17,092 nt of DNA from a bacterium (GTDB lineage: Bacteria > Acidobacteriota > Thermoanaerobaculia > Multivoradales > JAHEKO01): contig JAAENP010000289.1 of NCBI GenBank assembly GCA_024224155.1, forward strand, positions 1 to 17,092, written 5' to 3'. The notes under the pieces are model-generated. The model saw nothing but the letters and a program-made list of their open reading frames with translations, did not search any database and had not been told where the DNA came from. This document shows positions 3,229 to 16,958 of the stretch, piece by piece (position 1 is the first letter of the stretch; every line of letters starts with the position of its first letter). The position numbers and the translations under genes are program-made.

Positions 3229-3752
3229 GCCGCTCTCTCGTCAACGCTGCCTCAGACAAGGGGCTCGTTCACTCGCGCACCTCCTCACCGGCACGGACTC
3301 GCTCAGATCCCAACAAGCCGTGGCGACTCGCATGGCTCTTGCTGACCATAGCCCTGGCGGCGCACGTGCTCGACGAAGCCCTGACCGACTTTCTTTCGGT
3401 CTACAACCCCGCGGTCGCGACTCTTCGGGACACCGTGCCCTGGTTGGCTCTCCCCAGCTTTAGCTTCGGCGCGTGGATCACCGGTCTCGGAATCGGAATT
3501 CTCGTGCTGGCGGCGCTCACGCCCCTTGCTCGCGGCGACAGGCCTTGGATGCGGCGCCTGTCGTACGTCTACGGAATCATCATGACGCTGAACGGCCTGG
3601 GTCATATGGGCGCCTCGTTGGTGCTGGGCCGCTGGATGCCCGGCGTCGTCTCCTCGCCGTTTTTGCTGGCGGCCGCGCTCTTCCTGCTCGTGAGCGTGCC
3701 GGAGCGGCCACAGCCCGCGACGCCCGTCGATCGGGAGAGCTCGGGTCGATGA
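3225..3752 (+). CDS. Integral membrane protein, HXXEE-like (AAHVLDEAL motif), 175 aa
   Basis: GTG start overlapping the upstream stop (GTGA). Four or five hydrophobic helices. An H-x-x-D-E motif sits at the start of the first helix. The family assignment is tentative. Confidence 0.55.
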   Translation: MSRSLVNAASDKGLVHSRTSSPARTRSDPNKPWRLAWLLLTIALAAHVLDEALTDFLSVYNPAVATLRDTVPWLALPSFSFGAWITGLGIGILVLAALTPLARGDRPWMRRLSYVYGIIMTLNGLGHMGASLVLGRWMPGVVSSPFLLAAALFLLVSVPERPQPATPVDRESSGR

Positions 3753-5266
3753 CCAGGGTCCGCTGGTGGCCTGCGGCGGTCATTCTCACTCTGGTGACGA
3801 TTCGCCTGGCCGTTATCTGGCTCGGCGACGCGCCCAGCACCCAGGCGCGCGTGGTGCCCACGCTCAAGGTTATGGTCCTCGCCGCCGCCCTGTTCTTCAT
3901 GTGGGCGCTACTGTTTTCGCGGTTGAAGGGCCGCACTCGGTTGGTCATCCTGCTGGTGGTGCTCCTTGCCGGCGGCGTTCTGGGGTCCACGGTCCGGATT
4001 ACTGGCGTCAGCGGCAACGTGGTGCCCATCCTGGCTTGGCGCTGGGCCGGCGACCAGGCTCTCGAGGATCCCCTTGGACCGGTCTTGGTCACCGACCGAA
4101 TCTCCCTCCTGGGGGACTATCCACAGTTCTACGGCCCGCGGCGCGATGCCACGCTCCCGGGTCCGCGCCTGGCCCGAGACTGGCGGTCGAGCCCGCCGCG
4201 CCAGCTCTGGCGTCGAGACGTGGGTGAAGCCTGGTCGGCCTTTGCCGTCGTCGGTTCTGCGGCGATTACCCAGGAGCAGCGCGGCGAAGAGGAAGTTGTG
4301 GTTCGCTATGACCTGGAGTCCGGCCGACAGGTTTGGGTTCATGCCGACCGCACGCGGTTGGAGACGACCGTCGGTGGCAGAGGCCCCAGGGCGACGCCGA
4401 CGATCGCCGAAGGCCGTGTCTACTCCCTGGGCGCGACCGGCATCCTCAACTGTCTCGATCTCGAAAGCGGTGACCTCATTTGGTCGCGCGACCTAGTCGA
4501 CGATAATCAGGCGCGTCTCGCCGACTACGGGATGCCGTCGTCCCCGTTGCTGGTCGACGATCTCGTGGTCGTCCAGTTGGCGCGGGTGGGCAGCTCCCTG
4601 GTTGCCTACCGCCGGACCGACGGCGAGCCGGTCTGGCGGGCGGGCCAGGACTCGGGAAGCTACAGCTCGCCGATACTGGCCACGGTGGCCGGGATCAGGC
4701 AGCTTGTGATCGTCAACCAAAGAAGCATCGCCGGCCATCTGCCCGAAAGCGGCGAAATGCTCTGGCGCGAGGAATGGCTCCATGCGGGCGAAAAGGTCAC
4801 GCCACCCCTGCTCCTCGGTGACGATCGACTCTTGATCTCGGCGGGCTACGGAGCGGGCAGTCGCCTCTTGCGCCTCCGTGCAGACGGGAGGGGCCTGGCC
4901 ATCGAGGAGCTGTGGAATAGCCTCCGCTTGAAGTCCAAGTTCGCCTCCATGGTGCTCCACGAGGGCACGGTCTACGGGCTCGACGACGGCATCCTCACCG
5001 CTCTCGACCCCGAAAGCGGCGAGCGGCTCTGGAAACGCGGGCGGTACGGTCACGGTCAGATGATCCTGGTCGGCGACCTTTTGTTGATCCAGTCGGAAAA
5101 GGGCGATGTGGCATTGGTCGAACCGACGCCGCAGGAGCATCGCGAGCTCGCGCGCTTCGAAGCGCTGAGCGGCAAGACCTGGAACCCACCTGCGCTTGCC
5201 GGTCGCCACCTGCTGGTCCGCAACAATCGGGAGGCGGCCTGCTACGAGCTCCCGGTCGAGTCCTGA
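3749..5266 (+). CDS. PQQ-like beta-propeller repeat protein (BamB/quinoprotein-like fold) with three N-terminal TM helices, about 505 aa
   Basis: ATG overlapping the upstream stop (ATGA) gives MTRVRWWPAAVILTLV.... Repeated W/G-containing blades are visible (GRQVWVH, GDLIWSRDL, GEPVWRAG, GEMLWREE, GERLWKRG). The track ORF begins at 3473, but that 5' part overlaps the previous gene in another frame. Confidence 0.7.
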   Translation: MTRVRWWPAAVILTLVTIRLAVIWLGDAPSTQARVVPTLKVMVLAAALFFMWALLFSRLKGRTRLVILLVVLLAGGVLGSTVRITGVSGNVVPILAWRWAGDQALEDPLGPVLVTDRISLLGDYPQFYGPRRDATLPGPRLARDWRSSPPRQLWRRDVGEAWSAFAVVGSAAITQEQRGEEEVVVRYDLESGRQVWVHADRTRLETTVGGRGPRATPTIAEGRVYSLGATGILNCLDLESGDLIWSRDLVDDNQARLADYGMPSSPLLVDDLVVVQLARVGSSLVAYRRTDGEPVWRAGQDSGSYSSPILATVAGIRQLVIVNQRSIAGHLPESGEMLWREEWLHAGEKVTPPLLLGDDRLLISAGYGAGSRLLRLRADGRGLAIEELWNSLRLKSKFASMVLHEGTVYGLDDGILTALDPESGERLWKRGRYGHGQMILVGDLLLIQSEKGDVALVEPTPQEHRELARFEALSGKTWNPPALAGRHLLVRNNREAACYELPVES

Positions 5267-6082: not shown

Positions 6083-7579
6083 TTATCGATCGCGCCGCGG
6101 CTGCGGATCCAGGGGCTCGAGCGTCCGCCCGGCCAGTGCCGGATGGTGCGGCGGGATATGGGTGGCTCGAAACACGGAGTACGGCGGATCGCCGGCCGGA
6201 TTCGGCGCATTGCCGGAGTAAGGATTCAGATAGCTCCAGACGATGTCGCCTTCCCGAGTGACCTCGAAGAAACGACCGTCGGGACCGGAACAGATCAGCG
6301 TGTTGCCATTCATCAACCGCTGGGCGCCGGAGATGAAGTCGGCATAGAAGGACTCCGGGGGCTCTGCCGTGTACTGCCAGACCGGCCCCTCCGGAGGAAA
6401 CGCGCCTCCCGGGTGGCGCCGGTAGCGCCCGTCGGCGTCGACCGGCGGGGCGATCTCGAGCACCGAGGAGTAGCCGTCACCTGGTCGGCCGGCACCGTTG
6501 TTGAACACCAGCAGGTTGCCGGCTCCAGGATGGCCCGGCGGGATCCAGCTCGCGTCATGCTGCGCGAAGAGCTGCCGATCCTCGTGGGTGCCCCCGTCGA
6601 AGACCTGGGGATTGCCCCAGCGGTACAGAAGGTCCCCACCTCGGCCGGCGCGACCGCCGGTGTGACCGGACGCCTCGCGCGTGCTGGTGGAGTGGTCGAG
6701 GATCCAGATCTCGCTGTATTGATTGACGCTGAGGAGGATCTGATCGAGCCGAAGGTTGTAGGCAATCGAGTTGGTGTGGACGAAATCGGCGGCCGCGTCC
6801 GCCAGGGTGCCGTCCCGGCCTAGGTAGCCCAGCGCCTTCAGACGGCTCAGCAGTGCCTCACTGGGCCGCTCCGGACCCCGACCGGCATTGAGATCGACGA
6901 GCCCGGGGTGCTCACTCAATCTGCCGAAGTTGGCCAAGGCGGGGTCATGGTCCTGGATCAGGTGATCCCAAAGGTGCCACTCCCAGACGACTCGAGCGTC
7001 GTCGGGCGGCCGGGGCTCGACCTCCAGCACCGCATCCGGCCAAAGCCCGCCGAGGCCCAGAAGATCGGACCGTCGTCCCGCCCGCCGGGCCTCGCCGGGA
7101 CTCTTGTTCTCCCAGACGATGAGCAGCACATTGCCGTTCGGCAGCGGTTCAATATCGTGGTGCTGCACCCGGCCCGCGCTCGCCGCCACCCAGTCCCACA
7201 CCAACTCGCCGTCCCAGTCGAACTCTTGGAGCCGCCCCCCCTGGCCACCGCCCCGGAAGGGCACGCCCGGGTGCCGCGCCGTGCGCAGTAGATGGCCGTT
7301 GTTGAGCAGATAGACCGAGACCCCGGGCGGCAGTTCGCTCTCCCAGGTGTGCACCGCCCGCCCCTGCTTGTCCACCAGGTAGGTGACGGTCGACAAGAGC
7401 GGCGAGAAGAGAACGTAGCCGTCCGCCGCCCGGCTGTCGAGCTCTCGAGCATCGAGCAAGCCGATCCCTCGCACGCGCTCCACCTTACCGGTGTCGTCGC
7501 GTCCGGGCGCACATCCGAGGCCTGTCGCCGCTAGGCATGCCAACAAGAGTCCGGGGATGACGCGGCTGAACGGCCTCAA
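6083..7579 (-). CDS. Arylsulfotransferase (ASST) family beta-propeller lipoprotein
   Basis: TTG start with a GGAG SD. Lipobox LLACLAATGLGC. Propeller motifs resemble the ASST family (VQHHD, HTNSIAYN, WEWHLWDHL, LVFNNG, MNGNTLI). It lies 20 bp downstream of the hydrolase gene on the same strand. Confidence 0.6.
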   Translation of the reverse strand: MRPFSRVIPGLLLACLAATGLGCAPGRDDTGKVERVRGIGLLDARELDSRAADGYVLFSPLLSTVTYLVDKQGRAVHTWESELPPGVSVYLLNNGHLLRTARHPGVPFRGGGQGGRLQEFDWDGELVWDWVAASAGRVQHHDIEPLPNGNVLLIVWENKSPGEARRAGRRSDLLGLGGLWPDAVLEVEPRPPDDARVVWEWHLWDHLIQDHDPALANFGRLSEHPGLVDLNAGRGPERPSEALLSRLKALGYLGRDGTLADAAADFVHTNSIAYNLRLDQILLSVNQYSEIWILDHSTSTREASGHTGGRAGRGGDLLYRWGNPQVFDGGTHEDRQLFAQHDASWIPPGHPGAGNLLVFNNGAGRPGDGYSSVLEIAPPVDADGRYRRHPGGAFPPEGPVWQYTAEPPESFYADFISGAQRLMNGNTLICSGPDGRFFEVTREGDIVWSYLNPYSGNAPNPAGDPPYSVFRATHIPPHHPALAGRTLEPLDPQPRRDR

Positions 7580-7599
7580 GCCCGCTCCTCCCGGAGTCG

Positions 7600-9033
7600 C
7601 TACTTCACCACGACCTTCTTGCCGACCTTGAGGTTGTTCTCACGGTCGAGATCGTAGTTGCTCTTGTCCTGATCGGCGACGGTCACCAGATAGTACGTGC
7701 CGGGCGGCACGTCCTCCGGCACGGCGGCCTTGAGCCGCGCACCCTTCTTCTTCCCCGCCGCGAGACCGTTGACTTTCGCCTTTCCCAACCACCAGGCGCT
7801 CTGATCGAGGGTTTTCTCGGGCGCCAGATAGAAATCCACCGAGGTGGCGAGCGACCGGTCGGGGCTGGCATTCTTCAACTTCGCCACCAGGCGCAGAGTC
7901 TCGCCCGGGGCGACACGGCGCGGCTTGGCCTTGGCACGCAAGGTTCGCAGGTCGATGATCTCTCTTCCGGTCAGAATGATCTCGAGAAGCGGTGCGGTCT
8001 CGAGAATGTCCAGGTCTCCGCCGGCCGGAACGTCGACCCCGCACGCCGCGACGATCTCGGCGTCCGGGAGCACCAGGATCGCTTGGCCGCCGTAGCCGCT
8101 GGCGGCGTAGCCCCAAAGCGGCCTCAGCCGAGGATCATGCAAGAAGAGCTGAAAGAACTCCGGTTCGTACGTCCACCACATGTAGCCGTACCCGCGCCCG
8201 ACCGCCTCGCTTTGAGAGTACGCCCGGGTGCTCTCCGCGACCCACTCCTCGGGGATGATCTGACGATCGCCCCAGCGGCCGTTCTGCAGGAAGAGCTGGC
8301 CGAAGCGAGCCCGGTCTCGAGTCGTCATCCTGAAGGTGTAGCAGGGGTGCTCCGAGAACGGCTCGTAGGCGTAGTGGCAGGTCACCGGCGTGAAGTCCTG
8401 CATGCCGATGTGGCGGCCGATCCTGTTCTGAAACTCCTCGAAGATATCGACGCCAGTCTCCTGCCGGAATATCGTGCCGAGGGCGTTGAAGTCCCAGTTG
8501 TTGTAGTACCAAAAGGTGTCGGGCGGATGCGAGCCCCGAGGCGGACGCGCAGCCTTCATCTCCGGCGCTTCACAGGCCGCCTCGATGTAGATGCCGGATC
8601 TCGCTTTGATGAGATGGCGCACCTTCGCTTGCTTCTCGGCCGGGGTCAATGCCGTCGAGTCGTCGATGTCGAGCTCCTCCAAGGTCATGTCGAGATCGAT
8701 GTTGCCGTTGGCGACGTGGATGCCGTACAGAGCGCTCAAGAAGCTCTTGCGCATCGAGTGACACCAGAACGGCGAGGTCTCGCGCCCGAAGCTCGCCAGG
8801 ATCTTGCCCTTGAAGACCATGACGAAGGCCCCGATCGGGGCATCGGGCAGGCCCTGCCAATGCTGCTCGGCGGCCGCGATTGCTGCCGACGAGAAACCCG
8901 CTTCTTCCGGACTCCCCCACCTCTCCCAATCTCCATCGGCAGCCTCGGCGGCAGACGAATGGAGCGCGATCGGCCCGATCAGCGTGGCCGCGGTGAGGAT
9001 CGCGGCGATATGAACTCGGCGCTGTTTGCGCAT
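7600..9033 (-). CDS. Beta-lactamase-fold serine hydrolase (S-x-x-K motif SMRK) with a C-terminal CARDB-like beta-sandwich domain, secreted
   Basis: ATG with a GGAGGGG SD gives MRKQRRVHIAAILTAATLIGPIALHSSAAEA, a signal peptide. The motif FWCHSMRKSF matches the class C / esterase family. The C-terminal roughly 100 aa (PGETLRLVAKLKNASPDRS...GTYYLVTVADQDKSNYDLDRENN) look like a CARDB domain. The track ORF extends to 9117 but lacks an RBS there. Confidence 0.7.
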   Translation of the reverse strand: MRKQRRVHIAAILTAATLIGPIALHSSAAEAADGDWERWGSPEEAGFSSAAIAAAEQHWQGLPDAPIGAFVMVFKGKILASFGRETSPFWCHSMRKSFLSALYGIHVANGNIDLDMTLEELDIDDSTALTPAEKQAKVRHLIKARSGIYIEAACEAPEMKAARPPRGSHPPDTFWYYNNWDFNALGTIFRQETGVDIFEEFQNRIGRHIGMQDFTPVTCHYAYEPFSEHPCYTFRMTTRDRARFGQLFLQNGRWGDRQIIPEEWVAESTRAYSQSEAVGRGYGYMWWTYEPEFFQLFLHDPRLRPLWGYAASGYGGQAILVLPDAEIVAACGVDVPAGGDLDILETAPLLEIILTGREIIDLRTLRAKAKPRRVAPGETLRLVAKLKNASPDRSLATSVDFYLAPEKTLDQSAWWLGKAKVNGLAAGKKKGARLKAAVPEDVPPGTYYLVTVADQDKSNYDLDRENNLKVGKKVVVK

Positions 9034-9138
9034 GTGCCCCTCCTTGTCTGGAGACGCGACATTGGCTGCGATAGTCCGCAAGGGCACGCCGAAGTCGCTG
9101 CTGGACGGCCTCTGCATGGTTTCAACGAGCCAGATCGG

Positions 9139-9842: not shown

Positions 9843-11678
9843 ATGCTCGCTTTCCCGTTTCGCACGGTGTCGCCGGAGCGTCCGTTCGTGGCTCTTTTCG
9901 CGGCGTGCGCGCTCTGCATGTCGATGCCTGTGACCACACCGGCCACCGCGCAGGTCTCCTTCACTCGTAACTACGTCGATCTGGCCTACGGCGGCAACGG
10001 CCGTCCGGGCTGGGTCCGAGCCGGCGACATGGACGGCGACGGTGACCTCGACATCGTCGCCGGTGGCGGCAACGCTCTTTTCATATATGAGAACGATCCG
10101 GCCACGCCCGGCTGGGCGCGCCACGGCACACTCGACGGTACGGGACAGATGGGCGCCAACGGCGCAGTGCTCTTCGACGTCGATGACGATAGCGATCTAG
10201 ACGTCGTTTGTGCCAAGTACAAGAGCGACCTCGGCTGGTGGGAAAACCCGGGCGGAGTCCTCACGACTGCGTCGTGGACCTTCCACAAGATCTCGACCGA
10301 GAGCCGCTACCTGCACGACGTCATCCGGGCCGACCTCGACGGGAACGGCGTTGCCGAGGAGTTCATCGCCAACCTGAACCAGGGCTACTGGAACTCTCGA
10401 ATAACGATCAAATGGCTGACGCCCGCGGCGGTTCCGACGGACCTGTGGCCGTCACACACGATCGAGGCCGATCGACTCGAGGGTGCTCCCCACGGACACG
10501 CCGGTCTCGACACGGGAGACGTTGACGCTGACGGCCACGTCGACGTCTCCTACGCCAACGGCTGGTACGAGGCACCCGACGATCCGGCCGGCTCGTGGAC
10601 CTGGTACCAGGTCACCGACATCTACGGCATCTCGAACTCCCTCGTCCGGGATATGGACAAGGACGGCAACCCGGACCTCGTGATGTCGGCCGGTCATCAC
10701 GGTACCGGCATCGCCTGGTTCGAGGCCCCAGACAACCCGCCGGGCCCGGCTGCCGGTGCGTGGCTCCGCCACGACGTCGACCCGGCTGTCCATCACCCGG
10801 AGTGCCTCGCCGTTGTCGACCTCTTCGGCGACGGCGATCCGGACATCATCTCCTGTGATCTCTTCTTCGGCGAAGACCCCGGCGAACCCGGCTGGGACGA
10901 GGAGGTCCACAACGTCTATGTGTACGAGAACCTGGGAGGGGCGAGCACCTGGACAAAGCACTCGATCGCACCCGATTCCTACCCCAGCCATCTGCTCCAG
11001 ATGGTGGATTTGAACGCGGACGGGCGTACCGACATCCTTAGCGAAGCGACGGGAACCTCGGTGGTGACCTACTATGAAAACACCACACCGGGCACCGTTT
11101 GCCAAGATGACCTTTACGAGCCCGACGACGTCTGCGCCACGGCTGGCACACTTCCCGGAGAGGTCTTCCAGACTCACGCCCTCTGCGATGAAGACTGGGT
11201 CGAGCTCGCCGTGACCGACGAGGCGACCTACGAGGTTCGGACCACCAACCTGTGGTCGGGGACCGATACACTCATCGAGCTCTACGGCCAGGCGTGCAGT
11301 GACTACGTGTCGAGCGACGACGACTCCGGACCAGGCGTGAGCTCGCTGCTGGTCTGGGCGGCGACGTTCTCCGGCACCTACCGGGCGCGAGTACTCGCCG
11401 CAGGTGGCAACTACGCCGCAGGCAACGCCTACGACCTTGTCTACGAGTGCATTCAGGATTGCGGTCTTTGCACCGGGCTCGACCACCTCATTCTTTCCAC
11501 CGGCACGGTTGTAGGCGTTGTCGTCGAGGAGGCCTGCCAGACGATCACCGCCGGGTCCGACTATGGTGTGGGCCCCACCGGAGACCTCACCCTCCGCGCC
11601 GGCGACCTGGTGACCCTCAGCGAGGGTTTCTCGGCGAGCGGCGAGCTCACGATCGAGCTCGACCTCTCCCTTCGTTGA
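9843..11678 (+). CDS. Secreted FG-GAP/VCBS beta-propeller protein with a PPC (pre-peptidase C-terminal) domain, then a conserved C-terminal tail of about 65 aa
   Basis: Signal peptide (h-region FVALFAACALCM, then ATA-Q). Many DxDGDGxxD FG-GAP calcium-binding blades. PPC-like region YEPDDVCATAGTL...TYEVRTT...GTYRARV. The tail CIQDCGLC...ACQTITAG...LRAGDLVTLSEGFS is homologous to the C-terminus of the next gene. Confidence 0.8.
   Translation: MLAFPFRTVSPERPFVALFAACALCMSMPVTTPATAQVSFTRNYVDLAYGGNGRPGWVRAGDMDGDGDLDIVAGGGNALFIYENDPATPGWARHGTLDGTGQMGANGAVLFDVDDDSDLDVVCAKYKSDLGWWENPGGVLTTASWTFHKISTESRYLHDVIRADLDGNGVAEEFIANLNQGYWNSRITIKWLTPAAVPTDLWPSHTIEADRLEGAPHGHAGLDTGDVDADGHVDVSYANGWYEAPDDPAGSWTWYQVTDIYGISNSLVRDMDKDGNPDLVMSAGHHGTGIAWFEAPDNPPGPAAGAWLRHDVDPAVHHPECLAVVDLFGDGDPDIISCDLFFGEDPGEPGWDEEVHNVYVYENLGGASTWTKHSIAPDSYPSHLLQMVDLNADGRTDILSEATGTSVVTYYENTTPGTVCQDDLYEPDDVCATAGTLPGEVFQTHALCDEDWVELAVTDEATYEVRTTNLWSGTDTLIELYGQACSDYVSSDDDSGPGVSSLLVWAATFSGTYRARVLAAGGNYAAGNAYDLVYECIQDCGLCTGLDHLILSTGTVVGVVVEEACQTITAGSDYGVGPTGDLTLRAGDLVTLSEGFSASGELTIELDLSLR
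11448..11675 (+). other. Shared C-terminal domain, copy 1 (cysteine cluster, then AC...LRAG.LVTL..GFS)
   Basis: Aligns with residues encoded at 14967-15185 with a single 2-aa indel. AC, LRAG, LVTL and GFS are invariant. Confidence 0.6.
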
Positions 11679-11909
11679 CCGCGCGGCGCCAAACCGGAAA
11701 CCTATTCCGAGTTGGGAAAAAAAGGACCCTCAGAGACCGGCCAAGCGGCCTCGCGCAGCCGGCGACAAGCGATCTTTCCAAGCCCTAGGCGACCTTTTGG
11801 AGAAACCCTCTCGGATCTCTCGTTGGGCACAGTGCTTGCGTGTTGACTGTCCAGGTAGAAGCACGCCGAGCCGAGAGCGCGCGAGATGGGCCGCCCAAAG
11901 GAGGCTTCG

Positions 11910-14900
11910 ATGTCACGACATCCCGATTCTCCCTGCAACTCGCACTGGCATGACGCTCGACGGGCGCCGATCCAGCCGGTCCTGGCTCTCACTTTGCTGC
12001 TCTTTCACGGAGGGCTCGCTACCGAGGCTTCGCAGCTGGTTTCGTGGCGTGAAGTCTCTTCCGATCGGCCGAAGTCGACGGTCGACTCGGTCGGTCAGGG
12101 ACTCGAGCCGCTGGGGCTGGCGTCCGCCGACTTCGACGAGAACGGGGCGCCGGACCTGGTCGTTGCCTACGGCGGTGGCGACGAAGGCGCCGTCGCGCTC
12201 TATCGCGGCAACATCGACGCGCTCTTTCCTAACAGCCCGGGAGCTCGCCGGCGCCGCTCGAGCGACGGATGGACCGCCGCTCCCTTCGCGCCGGAGCCAC
12301 TCCTCGTAAGTGTGCCGCGGCCCTCGAGAGTTGCGGCGGGCGACTTCGACGCGGACGGACACGCCGACGCGCTGTTGAGCAGCGCGGACGGCAACCGGCT
12401 GATCCTCCTGGCGGGTGACGGACGGGGCGGGTTTCGGACTCCCGTGGAACGTCGCCTCCCGGGCCGCACTACCGCCTGGGCCACCGGCGAGATCGATCGA
12501 CGAGACGGCTTGCCGGACGTCGCCCTCGCCCTCAATCTCGAACAAGGACAGGGCTCACGGATTCTGGTGCTGAGCTCCCCCCAAGGAGCCTGGGCAACCG
12601 AGGGCGAGGCGATCGACTCCGCCCTACTCGCAGCCGACCTCGCGCTGGTCCGGATCGACCGTGACCCCCTGCCGGATCTGGTCATAGCCGGCGAGCGCGA
12701 GCTCCTGGTGCTGGCGGGGCGCGAGCGCTCAGCGGTCACCAACTCTCAGCCGCGCCGGGTCGTGACGTACCAGCCGCTGCCGGCGAAGATGATCGCACTC
12801 GCCACCGGGGATTTCCTGGGAGACCGGGCGCGCCGTGCCGAGATCGCGGCTGCACTGGACGACGGCCGGCTGCTCGTGATCGCCGATCGGCGCGCTCGTG
12901 AGACAACACGAACCGAAGGTGCGGGGCTCGGGAGCTCTGCGCCGTCGCCGGCCTTTGCCACCGGACTTGGGCTCGTTGAGCGGGATAATCTTCTCGACGG
13001 ACCTGCTTTCGACCCGGTTGGGCCGGTTTTGTTCGAGAGGATGGATCTAGGAGACCTGACCGCCGGCCGGCTCTCTTCGGACCACGCCACCAAGCTTTTC
13101 AGCGCGCGGGTTGCAGGGGGTTCGGCGGAGGATCTGCTCCTGCTGCCCGCAAGCGGCGCTGGTCTCGAGTCGATCTCCCTGCGCGCGACGGCCGCGGGCT
13201 CCGACCTGGCGCGGGCCGGGATCCTGGATTCGGCCATTGGACGCATCGTCGACCTTTTGCCGATGCGTCTCAATGCCGACGCGGTCCCCGACTTCGTCGC
13301 TCTGGAAGCCGGCCGAATCGCACCTAGGATCTTCGCTACCAACGGCCTCACCGCGCTGGCCGTCAACTCCACGGAGGACTCGGACGACGGCTCGTGCGAT
13401 CCGGCGCCGGGTGGCGACTGCACCCTGCGCGAGGCGATCAACGCCGCCAACTCTATGGCCGGCCTCGACACCATCGACTTCTCCGGGCTCTCGTCGGGCG
13501 ACCAGACCATCGCCGTCGGCGCGGCGCCGGACTTCCTTGGAGCGCTTCCCATCGTTACCGATCCACTGGTCCTCGACGGGACGACTCATCCCGACGGCCG
13601 GGTCGAGCTCGATGGCACGGCGGCTGGCCTGACCACCAACGGTCTTCAGATCAATGCCGGCATGTCGACCGTCCGCGGCTTCGTGATCAATCGTTTCAGC
13701 CCCTTCAGTGGCCTGGTGTTCTCGATCGGCGATGGCAATATCGCCGAAGGCAACCTCATCGGCACAGACGTCACCGGAATGCTCGATCTGGGCAATGGCG
13801 GTAACGGAGTGCTTCTGACCGAGAGTGCCGGCAACACGATCGGCGGTACCGCCGCGGCGGCCAGGAACGTGATCTCGGGCAACGAGTTTCCGGCCATCTC
13901 GCTCTCCGGTATCGGCGCGACCGGCAACACGGTTCAGGGGAACTTCGTCGGCACCGACGTCACCGGCGACGCGGCCCTGGGCAACACGACGAACAACCTT
14001 CAGATCATTCTCGGCGCCTCGAGCAACACGATCGGCGGCACGGCGGCAGGTGCCGGCAACGTGATCTCAGACAACCTCATGGCGGGCAATCCGGCCATCG
14101 CCGTGGTCGGAGACACCGGCGCCGGCGGCGGCACGCCCGTCGCGACGAGCGGCAACGTATTTCAGGGCAACCTGATCGGCACGGATCGCACCGGCACATT
14201 TGCCTTCGGCAACGCCAGCGTCGCTCTCTTCATCGCCAACAACGCCCCCGACAATACGATCGGCGGTAGCGCTCCGGGAGCGGGAAATGTGATCTCGGCG
14301 AGCGGCCTGGACGCGATACGGATCGGCAGTAGCACCACGACCGGAACCGCGATTGAGGGCAACCTCATCGGCACCGACCTGACGGGCAGCGCCGCCCTGG
14401 GAAACGGCAATCACGGCATCTTTCTCACGGTCTCGCCGAGCGGCACAACTATCGGCGGCGCGGCGGCCGGAAGTGGCAACCTCATCGCTTTCAACGCCCG
14501 CGACGGGATCTTCATCGATTCTGGCGTCGCCAACTCGGTCCAGGGCAACCGGATCTTCTCCAACGGCGAGCTGGCGATCGACCTCTGTGCCGACTTCGAA
14601 GCTGCCACGTCCAGCTGCCTGGACACGGTCGAGGTCACACCGAACGACGTTGACGACGCCGACGTCGGGGCCAACGACCTGCTGAACTTCCCCAGCCTCG
14701 ACCTGGTCCTCGCTGGGACCGCGACCGTCGAAGGTAGGCTCGACGGCCTGCCGAGCACGGATTTCACGTTGCGGTTCTATTCCAACATGAGTTGTGACTC
14801 CTCCGGGCACGGAGAGGCCGAGACCTTCCTGGGAGACGCGCTGGTGACGACCGATGCGACCGGCGGAGCGTCGTTCGCGGTGCCGCTGGGCGTGCCGCTC

Positions 14901-15188
14901 TCGCCGGGGGAACAGCTGGCGGCAACCGCCACCGATTCGGGCGGCAGCACTTCTGAGCTCTCCGCCTGCCGGACTTCCTGTGGGGCGGCGCCCGATCTCG
15001 TGCTCGAGAATCAGACCGTCTCGACGGAGCAGGAGTTCACGGCGTGTGATTCGATCCTGGCCTTCAATGGCTTCGTTGTCGATGCCCTCGTTGCGCTGCG
15101 TGCGGGCCGCCTTGTGACGCTCGGAGACGGGTTTTCGACGGGCGCCGGAGCTGCGCTGACGGTGGCCGTCGATCCACTCGTGCAATAG
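11910..15188 (+). CDS. Large secreted protein: N-terminal FG-GAP repeats, internal CSLREA-type motif (CTLREAINAAN), right-handed parallel beta-helix repeats (GNLIGTDxTG), an NDLLNFP motif region, and the shared C-terminal tail
   Basis: AAGGAGG SD 5 nt upstream of the ATG at 11910. The track start at 11886 has no RBS. A hydrophobic signal-like segment follows a roughly 20-aa n-region. Beta-helix coils of about 63 aa repeat at 13749, 13938, 14167 and 14356. The C-terminus is homologous to the preceding gene. Confidence 0.8.
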   Translation: MSRHPDSPCNSHWHDARRAPIQPVLALTLLLFHGGLATEASQLVSWREVSSDRPKSTVDSVGQGLEPLGLASADFDENGAPDLVVAYGGGDEGAVALYRGNIDALFPNSPGARRRRSSDGWTAAPFAPEPLLVSVPRPSRVAAGDFDADGHADALLSSADGNRLILLAGDGRGGFRTPVERRLPGRTTAWATGEIDRRDGLPDVALALNLEQGQGSRILVLSSPQGAWATEGEAIDSALLAADLALVRIDRDPLPDLVIAGERELLVLAGRERSAVTNSQPRRVVTYQPLPAKMIALATGDFLGDRARRAEIAAALDDGRLLVIADRRARETTRTEGAGLGSSAPSPAFATGLGLVERDNLLDGPAFDPVGPVLFERMDLGDLTAGRLSSDHATKLFSARVAGGSAEDLLLLPASGAGLESISLRATAAGSDLARAGILDSAIGRIVDLLPMRLNADAVPDFVALEAGRIAPRIFATNGLTALAVNSTEDSDDGSCDPAPGGDCTLREAINAANSMAGLDTIDFSGLSSGDQTIAVGAAPDFLGALPIVTDPLVLDGTTHPDGRVELDGTAAGLTTNGLQINAGMSTVRGFVINRFSPFSGLVFSIGDGNIAEGNLIGTDVTGMLDLGNGGNGVLLTESAGNTIGGTAAAARNVISGNEFPAISLSGIGATGNTVQGNFVGTDVTGDAALGNTTNNLQIILGASSNTIGGTAAGAGNVISDNLMAGNPAIAVVGDTGAGGGTPVATSGNVFQGNLIGTDRTGTFAFGNASVALFIANNAPDNTIGGSAPGAGNVISASGLDAIRIGSSTTTGTAIEGNLIGTDLTGSAALGNGNHGIFLTVSPSGTTIGGAAAGSGNLIAFNARDGIFIDSGVANSVQGNRIFSNGELAIDLCADFEAATSSCLDTVEVTPNDVDDADVGANDLLNFPSLDLVLAGTATVEGRLDGLPSTDFTLRFYSNMSCDSSGHGEAETFLGDALVTTDATGGASFAVPLGVPLSPGEQLAATATDSGGSTSELSACRTSCGAAPDLVLENQTVSTEQEFTACDSILAFNGFVVDALVALRAGRLVTLGDGFSTGAGAALTVAVDPLVQ
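14967..15185 (+). other. Shared C-terminal domain, copy 2
   Basis: CRTSCGAAPDLVLENQTVSTEQEFTACDSILAF...LRAGRLVTLGDGFSTGAGAALTV. Homologous to 11448-11675. Confidence 0.6.
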
Positions 15189-15259: not shown

Positions 15260-15344
15260 ACCTACAGCGTGACGAGTGAATCGCTGATAGATAGCCGTCC
15301 GTCTATGAAGAAGGCTCCTACTGAGCGGCAAGGAGGTATTGCTC

Positions 15345-16958
15345 ATGATCCAAAAGACTAGACGAGCAACGTTCTTCAGCGGCGTCGGCCTCGCGAGCCT
15401 GGTGGTCGCCACCATGTTGAGCGGGTTCATGCCCGGGAATGTCGGCGCTCCCGAGAGCTTCATCGTGCAAGCGAACGATGTCGAAACAGCGGCCGCAGCC
15501 GTCCTCGGCGTGGGGGCCGAGATCGACCGCGAGCTCGGCATCATCGACGCCGTTACCTCCCGCCTGACCGCAGAGCAGGCAGCCGAGCTGCAGGCGGCAA
15601 CCCCGCCGATCCGGATACATGCCAACGGCGGAGTCCGGATCTCTGGAGATGGGGACGGAAACTCGATGGTGACCGACTACCCCACCCTCGTGCGGGCCGA
15701 CCTGCTGCACGCCGAGGGGCTGACAGGCTTCGGCACGACGATCGCGATCGTCGACACCGGGTCCTGGCTGGGCAAAGGGATCAAAAAGAACGCGCAGGGC
15801 CAGCACCGGCTCCTCGCCCGTTTCGACGCTTTTCTGGACCGAGTCGAGACCCCAGCCGAGGAGCATGAGGATCTCAGCGGTCACGGATCGCACGTCACCG
15901 GCGTGGCGCTGAGCAGCCGGCAGGCCGACGGCAAGTTCAATGGCATCGCGCCTGACGCCGACTTGGTCGTCGTCGAGGCGTTCGATGCCGCGGGCGGCTC
16001 TACCTACGCGGACGTGATCAACGGCCTCGACTGGGTGGTCGCCAACAGAAACGCCTACGGCATCGGAGTGCTGAACCTGTCGTTCAGCGCGGCGCCGCGC
16101 TCTCACTACTGGGAGGACCCCCTGAATCAAGCGGTGATGGCCGCCTGGCAGGCCGGAATCGTCGTCGTGGCCTCGGCCGGCAACACCGGCCCGGACGCGA
16201 TGACCATCGGCTCGCCGGGAAGCGTGCCCTACATCATCACCGTCGGGGCGATGACGGACAGCTATACCCCCGCCGATACCAGCGACGACCGGCTGACCTC
16301 TTTCTCCGCCGCGGGGCCGACCTACGATGCGTTTGTCAAGCCGGATCTGGTGGCGCCCGGCGGTCATATGATGAGCACGATCTGGCAGCACACCGAGCTC
16401 GCCGGCGACCACCCCGAGTACGTCGACGGCAAGTACTTCGAGATGTCGGGCACCTCACAGGCTGCAGCCGCGGTCAGTGGAATAGCCGCCTTGCTCCTGC
16501 AGGCGGAACCCGGCTTGACGCCGGACCAGGTGAAATGCCGGCTCTTGGCCTCCGCACGGCCCGCGGTCGATGATCTGGGTGCGCTCGCCTACAGCGTCTT
16601 TCAACAAGGTACCGGGCTCGTGGATGCCTACGACACTATCTACGGCTCCGCCAACGACTGCGCCAACGTCGGACTCGACGTCGATGCGGACCTCGACGGC
16701 ACCGGGCACTTCATCGGCCGCGCTCAGCGTGCCGCGGACGGCAGCTTCTACATCGAGGGCCTGGCCGGCTACGTCTGGAACGACGGCTATGTCTGGAACG
16801 ATGGCTATGTCTGGAACGATGGTTACGTCTGGAACGATGGTTACGTCTGGAACGATGGTTACGTCTGGAACGATGGTTACGTCTGGAATGATGGCTACGT
16901 CTGGAATGACGGACTGACGGAGCCGGCGACGATCAACGTCTGGGTCGAACAGGAGTAG
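15345..16958 (+). CDS. Subtilisin-like serine peptidase (MEROPS S8) with a signal peptide, an I9 inhibitor propeptide and a C-terminal 8x GYVWND tandem repeat
   Basis: AGGAGG SD 8 nt upstream of the ATG (MIQKTRR...). The Asp-His-Ser catalytic triad is present (IAIVDTGS, HGSHVTG, GTSQAAA). The I9-like propeptide is ESFIVQANDV...IRIHANG. The track start at 15339 is a TTG two codons upstream. Confidence 0.9.
   Translation: MIQKTRRATFFSGVGLASLVVATMLSGFMPGNVGAPESFIVQANDVETAAAAVLGVGAEIDRELGIIDAVTSRLTAEQAAELQAATPPIRIHANGGVRISGDGDGNSMVTDYPTLVRADLLHAEGLTGFGTTIAIVDTGSWLGKGIKKNAQGQHRLLARFDAFLDRVETPAEEHEDLSGHGSHVTGVALSSRQADGKFNGIAPDADLVVVEAFDAAGGSTYADVINGLDWVVANRNAYGIGVLNLSFSAAPRSHYWEDPLNQAVMAAWQAGIVVVASAGNTGPDAMTIGSPGSVPYIITVGAMTDSYTPADTSDDRLTSFSAAGPTYDAFVKPDLVAPGGHMMSTIWQHTELAGDHPEYVDGKYFEMSGTSQAAAAVSGIAALLLQAEPGLTPDQVKCRLLASARPAVDDLGALAYSVFQQGTGLVDAYDTIYGSANDCANVGLDVDADLDGTGHFIGRAQRAADGSFYIEGLAGYVWNDGYVWNDGYVWNDGYVWNDGYVWNDGYVWNDGYVWNDGYVWNDGLTEPATINVWVEQE
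16767..16910 (+). repeat. Eight tandem 18-bp repeats (GGYTAYGTCTGGAAYGAY), in frame, encoding (GYVWND)x8
   Basis: Read directly. Copies differ only at third-codon positions (C/T), so the peptide repeat is perfectly conserved. Copies 4-6 are identical and copies 2-3 are identical. Confidence 0.9.

Follow-up and report, generated by a model that had tools for sequence, protein, structure and literature searches.

The window analyzed in this work, a 17,092-nucleotide stretch of DNA covering contig JAAENP010000289.1 (assembly GCA_024224155.1) from a bacterium of the Thermoanaerobaculia (Acidobacteriota), has a G+C content of ~65% and carries two co-directional genes, for proteins 1 and 2, which both end in a cysteine-containing tail that is the subject of our analysis. 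In protein 1 (positions 9843–11678, + strand, 611 residues), a signal-peptide-like segment at the N-terminus is followed by a beta-propeller region of the FG-GAP/VCBS type and a PPC-like segment, with the tail at the C-terminus, while protein 2 (positions 11886–15188, + strand, 1100 residues) combines a signal-peptide-like segment, FG-GAP repeats, a CSLREA motif, Gly/Asn-rich repeats, and an immunoglobulin (Ig)-like segment with the tail. The signal peptides of both proteins were judged by eye from the sequence. Tail 1 lies at positions 11448–11675 (+ strand, residues 536–611, of which residues 537–610 are spanned by the family profile described below) and ends in LDLSLR followed by the stop codon, and tail 2 lies at positions 14967–15185 (+ strand, residues 1028–1100, with the family profile spanning residues 1027–1099) and ends in VDPLVQ, again followed by the stop codon. 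An initial annotation, made from the DNA sequence without database searches, had put forward these tails as a possible mark of cargo for an undescribed export or attachment route. Both open reading frames (ORFs) exist as it described them, and the tail sequences and coordinates that it quoted are exact.

The two window tails are homologous. In a single BLASTP comparison, they share 37% identity over 67 columns with an E-value of 6e-7, and our alignment bears out the reported invariance of the AC, LRAG, LVTL, and GFS blocks, which are identical between both tails. The proposed single 2-residue indel, in turn, gives way to two gaps of 2 residues in the BLASTP alignment, with an additional gap of 3 residues in the cysteine region when aligned using MAFFT. 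When scored against an independent profile of ~150 other family members, from which the orthologues of protein 1 were left out, tail 1 obtains 73.0 bits and tail 2 obtains 71.2 bits. Tail 2 shares more identity with unrelated family members (47%) than with the neighboring tail 1 (34%), and tail 1 is likewise closer to distant family members than to tail 2, from which it follows that the window pair is not the product of a recent local duplication. A six-frame scan of the window found no third copy.

As a sequence family, the tail is already described: NCBIfam NF045639 (GCX_COOH, "3-coathanger stack domain") is the only NCBIfam family that matches both tails, with scores of 14.9 bits (E 0.018) for tail 1 and 15.2 bits (E 0.014) for tail 2, neither of which reaches the curated cutoff of 26 bits. 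Among the orthologue tails, that of P0005 reaches this cutoff at 26.2 bits, and that of P0006 scores 25.3 bits. Six full-length orthologues of protein 1 (58–76% identity) carry the same tail at their extreme C-terminus, as does one shorter protein composed of a propeller and the tail. An exhaustive search of 1.84 billion cluster representatives with a profile built from nine tails retrieved 1718 proteins at E ≤ 1e-3, including 444 at E ≤ 1e-10, and NF045639 matches 60 of 81 retrieved family tails at E ≤ 1e-3 (the best at 1.2e-13), as well as 21 of 64 full-length members at E ≤ 1e-5. Because a profile of family members scores the window tails at 71–73 bits, and because most family tails match NF045639, the window tails can be placed in NF045639 by way of intermediates and the profile. 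On these sequence grounds, they belong to an existing curated family but have diverged so far that its model would not annotate them.

The NF045639 model comprises 49 positions, and the part of the tail that it covers begins at the "AC" cysteine and runs to the end. Both the stacked all-beta structural model and the G-rich "RAG..V.L..GF.V..G" core of the tails agree with the name of the family, to which neither a function nor a publication is attached. The element is hence a new, sub-threshold member of a known, functionally uncharacterized domain family and does not represent a new kind; the novel findings are the N-terminal extension of the domain with its first conserved cysteine, how large the family is, the statistics on position, and the link to cargo that carries known sorting tags elsewhere. 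Pfam gave no credible match for the tails and the Protein Data Bank (PDB) gave no sequence relative, and no relatives were found in plasmid records or in viral contigs. We note that a word-index search with the two-tail alignment returned no matches even though tail-bearing orthologues exist, which reflects a limit of sensitivity rather than absence, and that there is no tail-bearing orthologue of protein 2 among the 72 homologues of this protein.

The profile search supports the suggestion that this element recurs on unrelated cargo with signal peptides and that its place there is overwhelmingly the extreme C-terminus. Among the 150 best representatives, the end of the domain lies within 10 residues of the C-terminus in 130, between 11 and 30 residues away in 5, and farther away in 15, and for the 59 full-length proteins (at least 300 residues and starting with Met) the corresponding numbers are 44 within 10 residues, 4 between 11 and 50 residues, and 11 at more than 50 residues. 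Independently of gene calls, a stop codon follows 0–4 codons after the domain in 28 of the 31 intact copies at 29 fetched loci. The domain thus shows a strong bias toward C-termini together with a number of non-terminal copies. Copies at internal positions are of the type that the initial annotation had named as counting against its proposal, although they form a minority and not the majority that it had specified.

These non-terminal cases are not artifacts, because their architectures recur. In one type, a signal peptide is followed by the domain and an RHS core, and in a second by the domain and a PKD array; in a third, varied cargo (a metzincin, an LRR protein, and another) precedes the domain and a conserved extension of ~355 residues, with 48–58% identity among the three proteins. 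The remaining types are a choice-of-anchor Q domain followed by the domain and a LenA/B-like region, and cysteine-free tandem copies in a Desulfobacterales "tandem-95 repeat protein". By eye, the ~355-residue extension (found in P0291, P0307, and P0331, which have different N-terminal cargo) resembles propeller repeats of the PD40/TolB type. No hidden PEP-CTERM-like anchor was found in the short extensions after the domain, which do not look like a helix followed by a basic cluster, and longer extensions in relatives are not of this type either. Two further observations concern protein ends: a C-terminal proline (…IDPSLxP) occurs in 57 of the 130 C-terminal members, an enrichment that is uninterpretable as the comparison set is also proline-rich, and many paralogues of protein 1 (P0010–P0031, ~800 residues) are without the tail and end in another recurrent motif, "LFADGFESGDTSAWS..TP".

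The family consensus, C-x(3)-DLxLxNxTVxxTxxFEAC-xTITAGPxFxVxxxGDVTLRAG-xxVxLxDGFSVxxGGxLxVEIDPSL, is legible as three repeats of ~22 residues, and a short "IDPSL"-type turn closes the protein. AlphaFold2 models both tails with high predicted local distance difference test values (92.2 for tail 1, which forms six strands, and 90.5 for tail 2) and with the same order of strands, and structure comparison of both predicted tails yields beta-helix matches, with nothing significant when searching the PDB using Foldseek. The tail is thus predicted to be a compact, independently folding, three-rung beta-solenoid and not a linear signal; in the models, this solenoid appears right-handed-like, with three stacked rungs of ~22 residues each and ~70–75 residues in all. 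In the models, the tails also display the stack of three similar beta-arch layers expected of NF045639. The closest folds are short right-handed beta-helices, namely, the MinC C-domain, bactofilin, the passengers of two-partner secretion systems and autotransporters, and the Candida Awp A-domains.

The cysteine pair noted in the initial annotation needs to be reassigned: the pair conserved in the family consists of a first cysteine that immediately precedes the first strand and, 22 residues farther on, the cysteine of the "AC" block, whereas the additional CxxxC of protein 1 is confined to its orthologues. In tail 1, these family-wide conserved columns correspond to C543 (positions 11469–11471, + strand) and C565 (positions 11535–11537, + strand), and in tail 2 to C1032 (positions 14979–14981, + strand) and C1054 (positions 15045–15047, + strand), such that the spacing is 22 residues in both. 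The two columns are filled in 78% and 93% of copies, and both together in 116 of 154. As the cysteines sit 22 residues and hence one rung apart, they are probably linked by a disulfide that would staple the domain over the distance of one rung. In addition, the outward-facing T, R, E, and D side chains of the TITAG, VTLRAG, and LTVEID strands are retained even in distant members, pointing to a shared interaction.

The cargo of the domain is very diverse, with 79 different Pfam families found among 64 full-length members. These include FG-GAP and DUF11 domains, reprolysin-like and other metallopeptidases, subtilases, PKD, cadherin-like, and Ig arrays, as well as purple acid phosphatase, endonuclease I, LamG, and RHS. 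At the level of NCBIfam, we find M36 peptidases for which the closest models are named as myxosortase-, T9SS- (type IX secretion system), or rhombosortase-dependent, together with choice-of-anchor Q and D domains, and both of these cargo classes end in recognized sorting tags in other lineages. In metallopeptidases picked by motif, the domain is located at the very end of the protein. A signal-peptide-like N-terminus is present in ~50 of 67 long members by a crude test.

Taking these properties into account, the tail can be compared with known C-terminal elements. It shares with the T9SS C-terminal domain (CTD; type A, TIGR04183, and type B, TIGR04131) the character of a folded domain of ~70–100 residues that closes secreted proteins of very diverse kinds at their extreme C-terminus, and many copies per genome count as a further likeness. 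In contrast to the T9SS CTD, which is an Ig-like sandwich, the tail is a predicted beta-solenoid that gives no hidden Markov model (HMM) match to TIGR04183 or TIGR04131, has its named carriers in metagenome-assembled genomes (MAGs) of Acidobacteriota and Desulfobacterales, and is also found at N-terminal, internal, and tandem positions. PEP-CTERM, GlyGly-CTERM, MYXO-CTERM, and LPXTG signals are found in the same C-terminal place on cargo of the same kinds (M36 peptidases and choice-of-anchor proteins), but they are composed of a motif, a transmembrane helix, and a basic cluster, whereas the tail is a soluble folded domain that has none of these, and the protein ends 0–4 residues after it. In agreement with what had been proposed for the tails, no T9SS, PEP-CTERM, GlyGly-CTERM, or LPXTG model matches them, the NCBIfam CTERM models gave no match in the window tails, and the terminal sequences ...ELTIELDLSLR (tail 1) and ...LTVAVDPLVQ (tail 2) contain no hydrophobic helix. 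Similarly, PPC (PF04151) does not match the tail itself. Dockerin, SLH, and CBM modules are comparable in that they are small, mostly C-terminal with exceptions and tandems, and carried by unrelated extracellular enzymes; they have no sequence or fold relationship to the tail, for which no cohesin-like partner or glycan ligand was identified, so that this likeness is one of functional analogy only.

Outside the tails, the FG-GAP and CSLREA labels given to the two proteins are confirmed. Protein 1, whose NCBI counterpart (100% identity) is named "MAG: VCBS repeat-containing protein [bacterium]", has a Pfam FG-GAP_3 match (E 4e-20), and the segment upstream of tail 1 (positions 11187–11393, + strand, residues ~449–517) aligns to profile positions 1–68 of the 70 positions of PF04151. 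Its score is 16.4 bits against a cutoff of 25.9 bits, and the PPC label therefore survives only as a sub-threshold resemblance. Protein 2 is listed by NCBI as a "CSLREA domain-containing protein", and its CSLREA motif (positions 13362–13451, + strand, residues 493–522) matches TIGR04214 with an E-value of 3.3e-10. Its Ig-like segment gives a weak Big_6 match, no Pfam model matched its Gly/Asn-rich repeat region, which the initial annotation had called a beta-helix, and Beta_helix and NosD Pfam matches are present in its relatives. The start of protein 2 is placed at the first ATG of the longest ORF (position 11886) in our numbering and 8 codons later (position 11910) by NCBI, which gives 1092 residues.

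The surroundings of the two genes contain a number of other features. The region upstream of protein 1 is rich in secreted-type proteins, with an arylsulfotransferase-like protein and a beta-lactamase-fold protein with a C-terminal CARDB domain at positions 6083–9117 (– strand), and a PQQ/BamB-like propeller further upstream at positions 3473–5266 (+ strand). Downstream of protein 2, an ORF at positions 15339–16958 (+ strand) encodes an S8 subtilase, within which an 18-bp tandem repeat at positions 16767–16906 (7.8 copies, 95% match) encodes GYVWND eight times just before the C-terminus. This subtilase was considered as a processing partner of the tails and rejected, as neither an S8 gene nor any other gene recurs beside tail genes across the 29 fetched loci.

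More generally, neighborhoods of ±10 kb around single genes at 29 loci revealed no recurrent neighbor gene of the domain, save for clade-specific synteny with a fiber-like protein. Paired tail-bearing genes within 10 kb occur in the window and at three of the loci (L003, L007, and L023). A signal-peptide protein of ~250 residues adjoins the tail gene at L009 (2297–2944), L010 (309–1181), and L011 (524–1638), and a neighbor of the same type is found at L015 (895–1773), L016 (2300–3178), and L021 (3317–2904). The N-terminal part of this protein matches Bdellovibrio bd2133 (8ond_A, E 2.3e-5), which we take to be a fiber protein, and its C-terminal "RHIGPMAQDF..FGLG" region resembles an intramolecular chaperone of the S74 type. 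Its presence next to the tail gene may be a case of clade-specific synteny. At L023 (1–21983, Vicinamibacteria, DATIBD010000146.1), the tail gene lies within a cluster that resembles one for polysaccharide biosynthesis and includes glycosyltransferases, methyltransferases, WbqC, and GDSL-like genes, and a second tail-bearing protein, which is BNR/sortilin-like, is encoded 6 kb upstream. The only match in the species-genome collection, L001 (5647–6282, Thermoanaerobaculia MAG JAWKHP010000004.1), is a copy of the tail whose sequence is spread over three reading frames, either as a pseudogene or through indel errors in the assembly.

Homology of the window tails, profile-level membership in a family, a C-terminal bias, diverse cargo, and multi-copy occurrence are thus all observed, as is the class of the predicted fold. 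The explanation that we tentatively prefer, as a possible one rather than an established one, is that the tail is a shared extracellular targeting or retention module, which docks its cargo on a conserved envelope or matrix ligand. The tail-bearing proteins would be exported by Sec, and the tail would fold and oxidize in the periplasm; following release of the protein across the outer membrane, the tail would then target or retain the cargo, by docking proteins as varied as propeller or adhesin-like proteins, metallo- and serine peptidases, nucleases, phosphatases, and RHS toxins onto a single conserved ligand in the envelope or the matrix, which may be a glycan or a partner protein. By analogy, the tail would be closer to a dockerin or a cell-surface binding module than to a translocon signal, and it behaves like a module in also being found after signal peptides, inside RHS proteins, before the ~355-residue extension, and in tandem. 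A function shared by the carriers is further suggested by the C-terminal bias, the diversity of the cargo, the frequent signal-peptide-like N-termini, and the pairs of tail-bearing genes within 10 kb. Several points weigh against this reading. The domain stands at the very end of at least three quarters of the proteins, and this terminal bias is a better fit to a positional, signal-like requirement than to a plain binding module. Furthermore, the first strand pair and the first conserved cysteine fall outside the NF045639 model, the window tails score ~15 bits against its cutoff of 26 bits, and the taxonomic range is drawn from a few named MAGs (Thermoanaerobaculia, Vicinamibacteria, and Desulfobacterales). 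Finally, a literature search for the domain family and NF045639 gave nothing relevant, and there is no known ligand, partner, or localization.

The same terminal bias (130 of 150 matches, and 28 of 31 copies when judged by the following stop codon) speaks for a true folded C-terminal sorting or secretion signal that is read by a dedicated outer-membrane export or attachment machinery, similar to the T9SS CTD and possibly removed at a later stage. A signal of this kind would also be consistent with the conserved motif at the extreme C-terminus, the lack of anything resembling another anchor after the domain, the several tail-bearing genes per locus, and diverse, secreted-looking cargo that includes both the M36 peptidases with myxosortase-, T9SS-, or rhombosortase-named relatives and the choice-of-anchor Q and D proteins. 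We nevertheless consider it unlikely, since 11 of the 59 full-length proteins (19%) carry the domain far from the C-terminus (including post-signal-peptide, RHS-internal, and tandem copies), the fold differs from the sandwich of the T9SS CTD, the analysis turned up no candidate for a protease or a channel, and no gene recurs alongside the domain in the 29 loci apart from the clade-specific synteny. In a narrower form, which we also hold to be rather improbable, the subfamily with the cysteine pair and a terminal "EIDPSL" would be the recognition tag of an uncharacterized export or surface-attachment pathway in Acidobacteriota (Thermoanaerobaculia and Vicinamibacteria) and other uncultured diderms, and would constitute a functional analogue of the T9SS CTD built on a beta-solenoid fold. 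The absence of a detectable partner gene is also compatible with a passive cap, stabilizer, or folding aid (an intramolecular chaperone or pro-domain, like the PPC extensions of peptidases) that has no common ligand or pathway, as are the location of tail 1 directly after the PPC-like segment in protein 1 and the fact that the small beta-helices of MinC, bactofilin, and autotransporter passengers, which are among the closest folds, act as caps or self-association units. This is, in our view, quite unlikely, as the same tail closes such unrelated folds as propellers, metzincins, subtilases, nucleases, and Ig arrays, which is unexpected for a fold-specific cap or chaperone, and as exposed positions are conserved across distant members. 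That the likeness of the window tails comes from chance, low complexity, or a recent local duplication might be suspected given that the two genes lie side by side and are each rich in Gly, Ala, and Thr, but this is refuted by the pairwise E-value of 6e-7, the 71–73 bits against the independent profile, the 1718 relatives in public data, and the greater similarity of each tail to distant members than to the other tail. Because the family is known, the fold is compact, non-terminal copies exist, and no machinery gene recurs, the new export or attachment route put forward for these tails stays at the level of a hypothesis, and nothing that we found demonstrates such a route.

If the domain were a common address label, ~1700 protein clusters would share one localization mechanism, which would span secreted peptidases, nucleases, phosphatases, adhesin-like proteins, and RHS toxins of poorly studied phyla. 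In this case, the family profile would identify the secreted or surface proteome of the carriers, and would provide a handle for finding the partner through phylogenetic profiling. Should the domain be no more than a structural module, it still holds that the curated NF045639 model misses divergent copies such as the window tails, and annotation would gain from a model widened to take in the first strand pair and the first cysteine.

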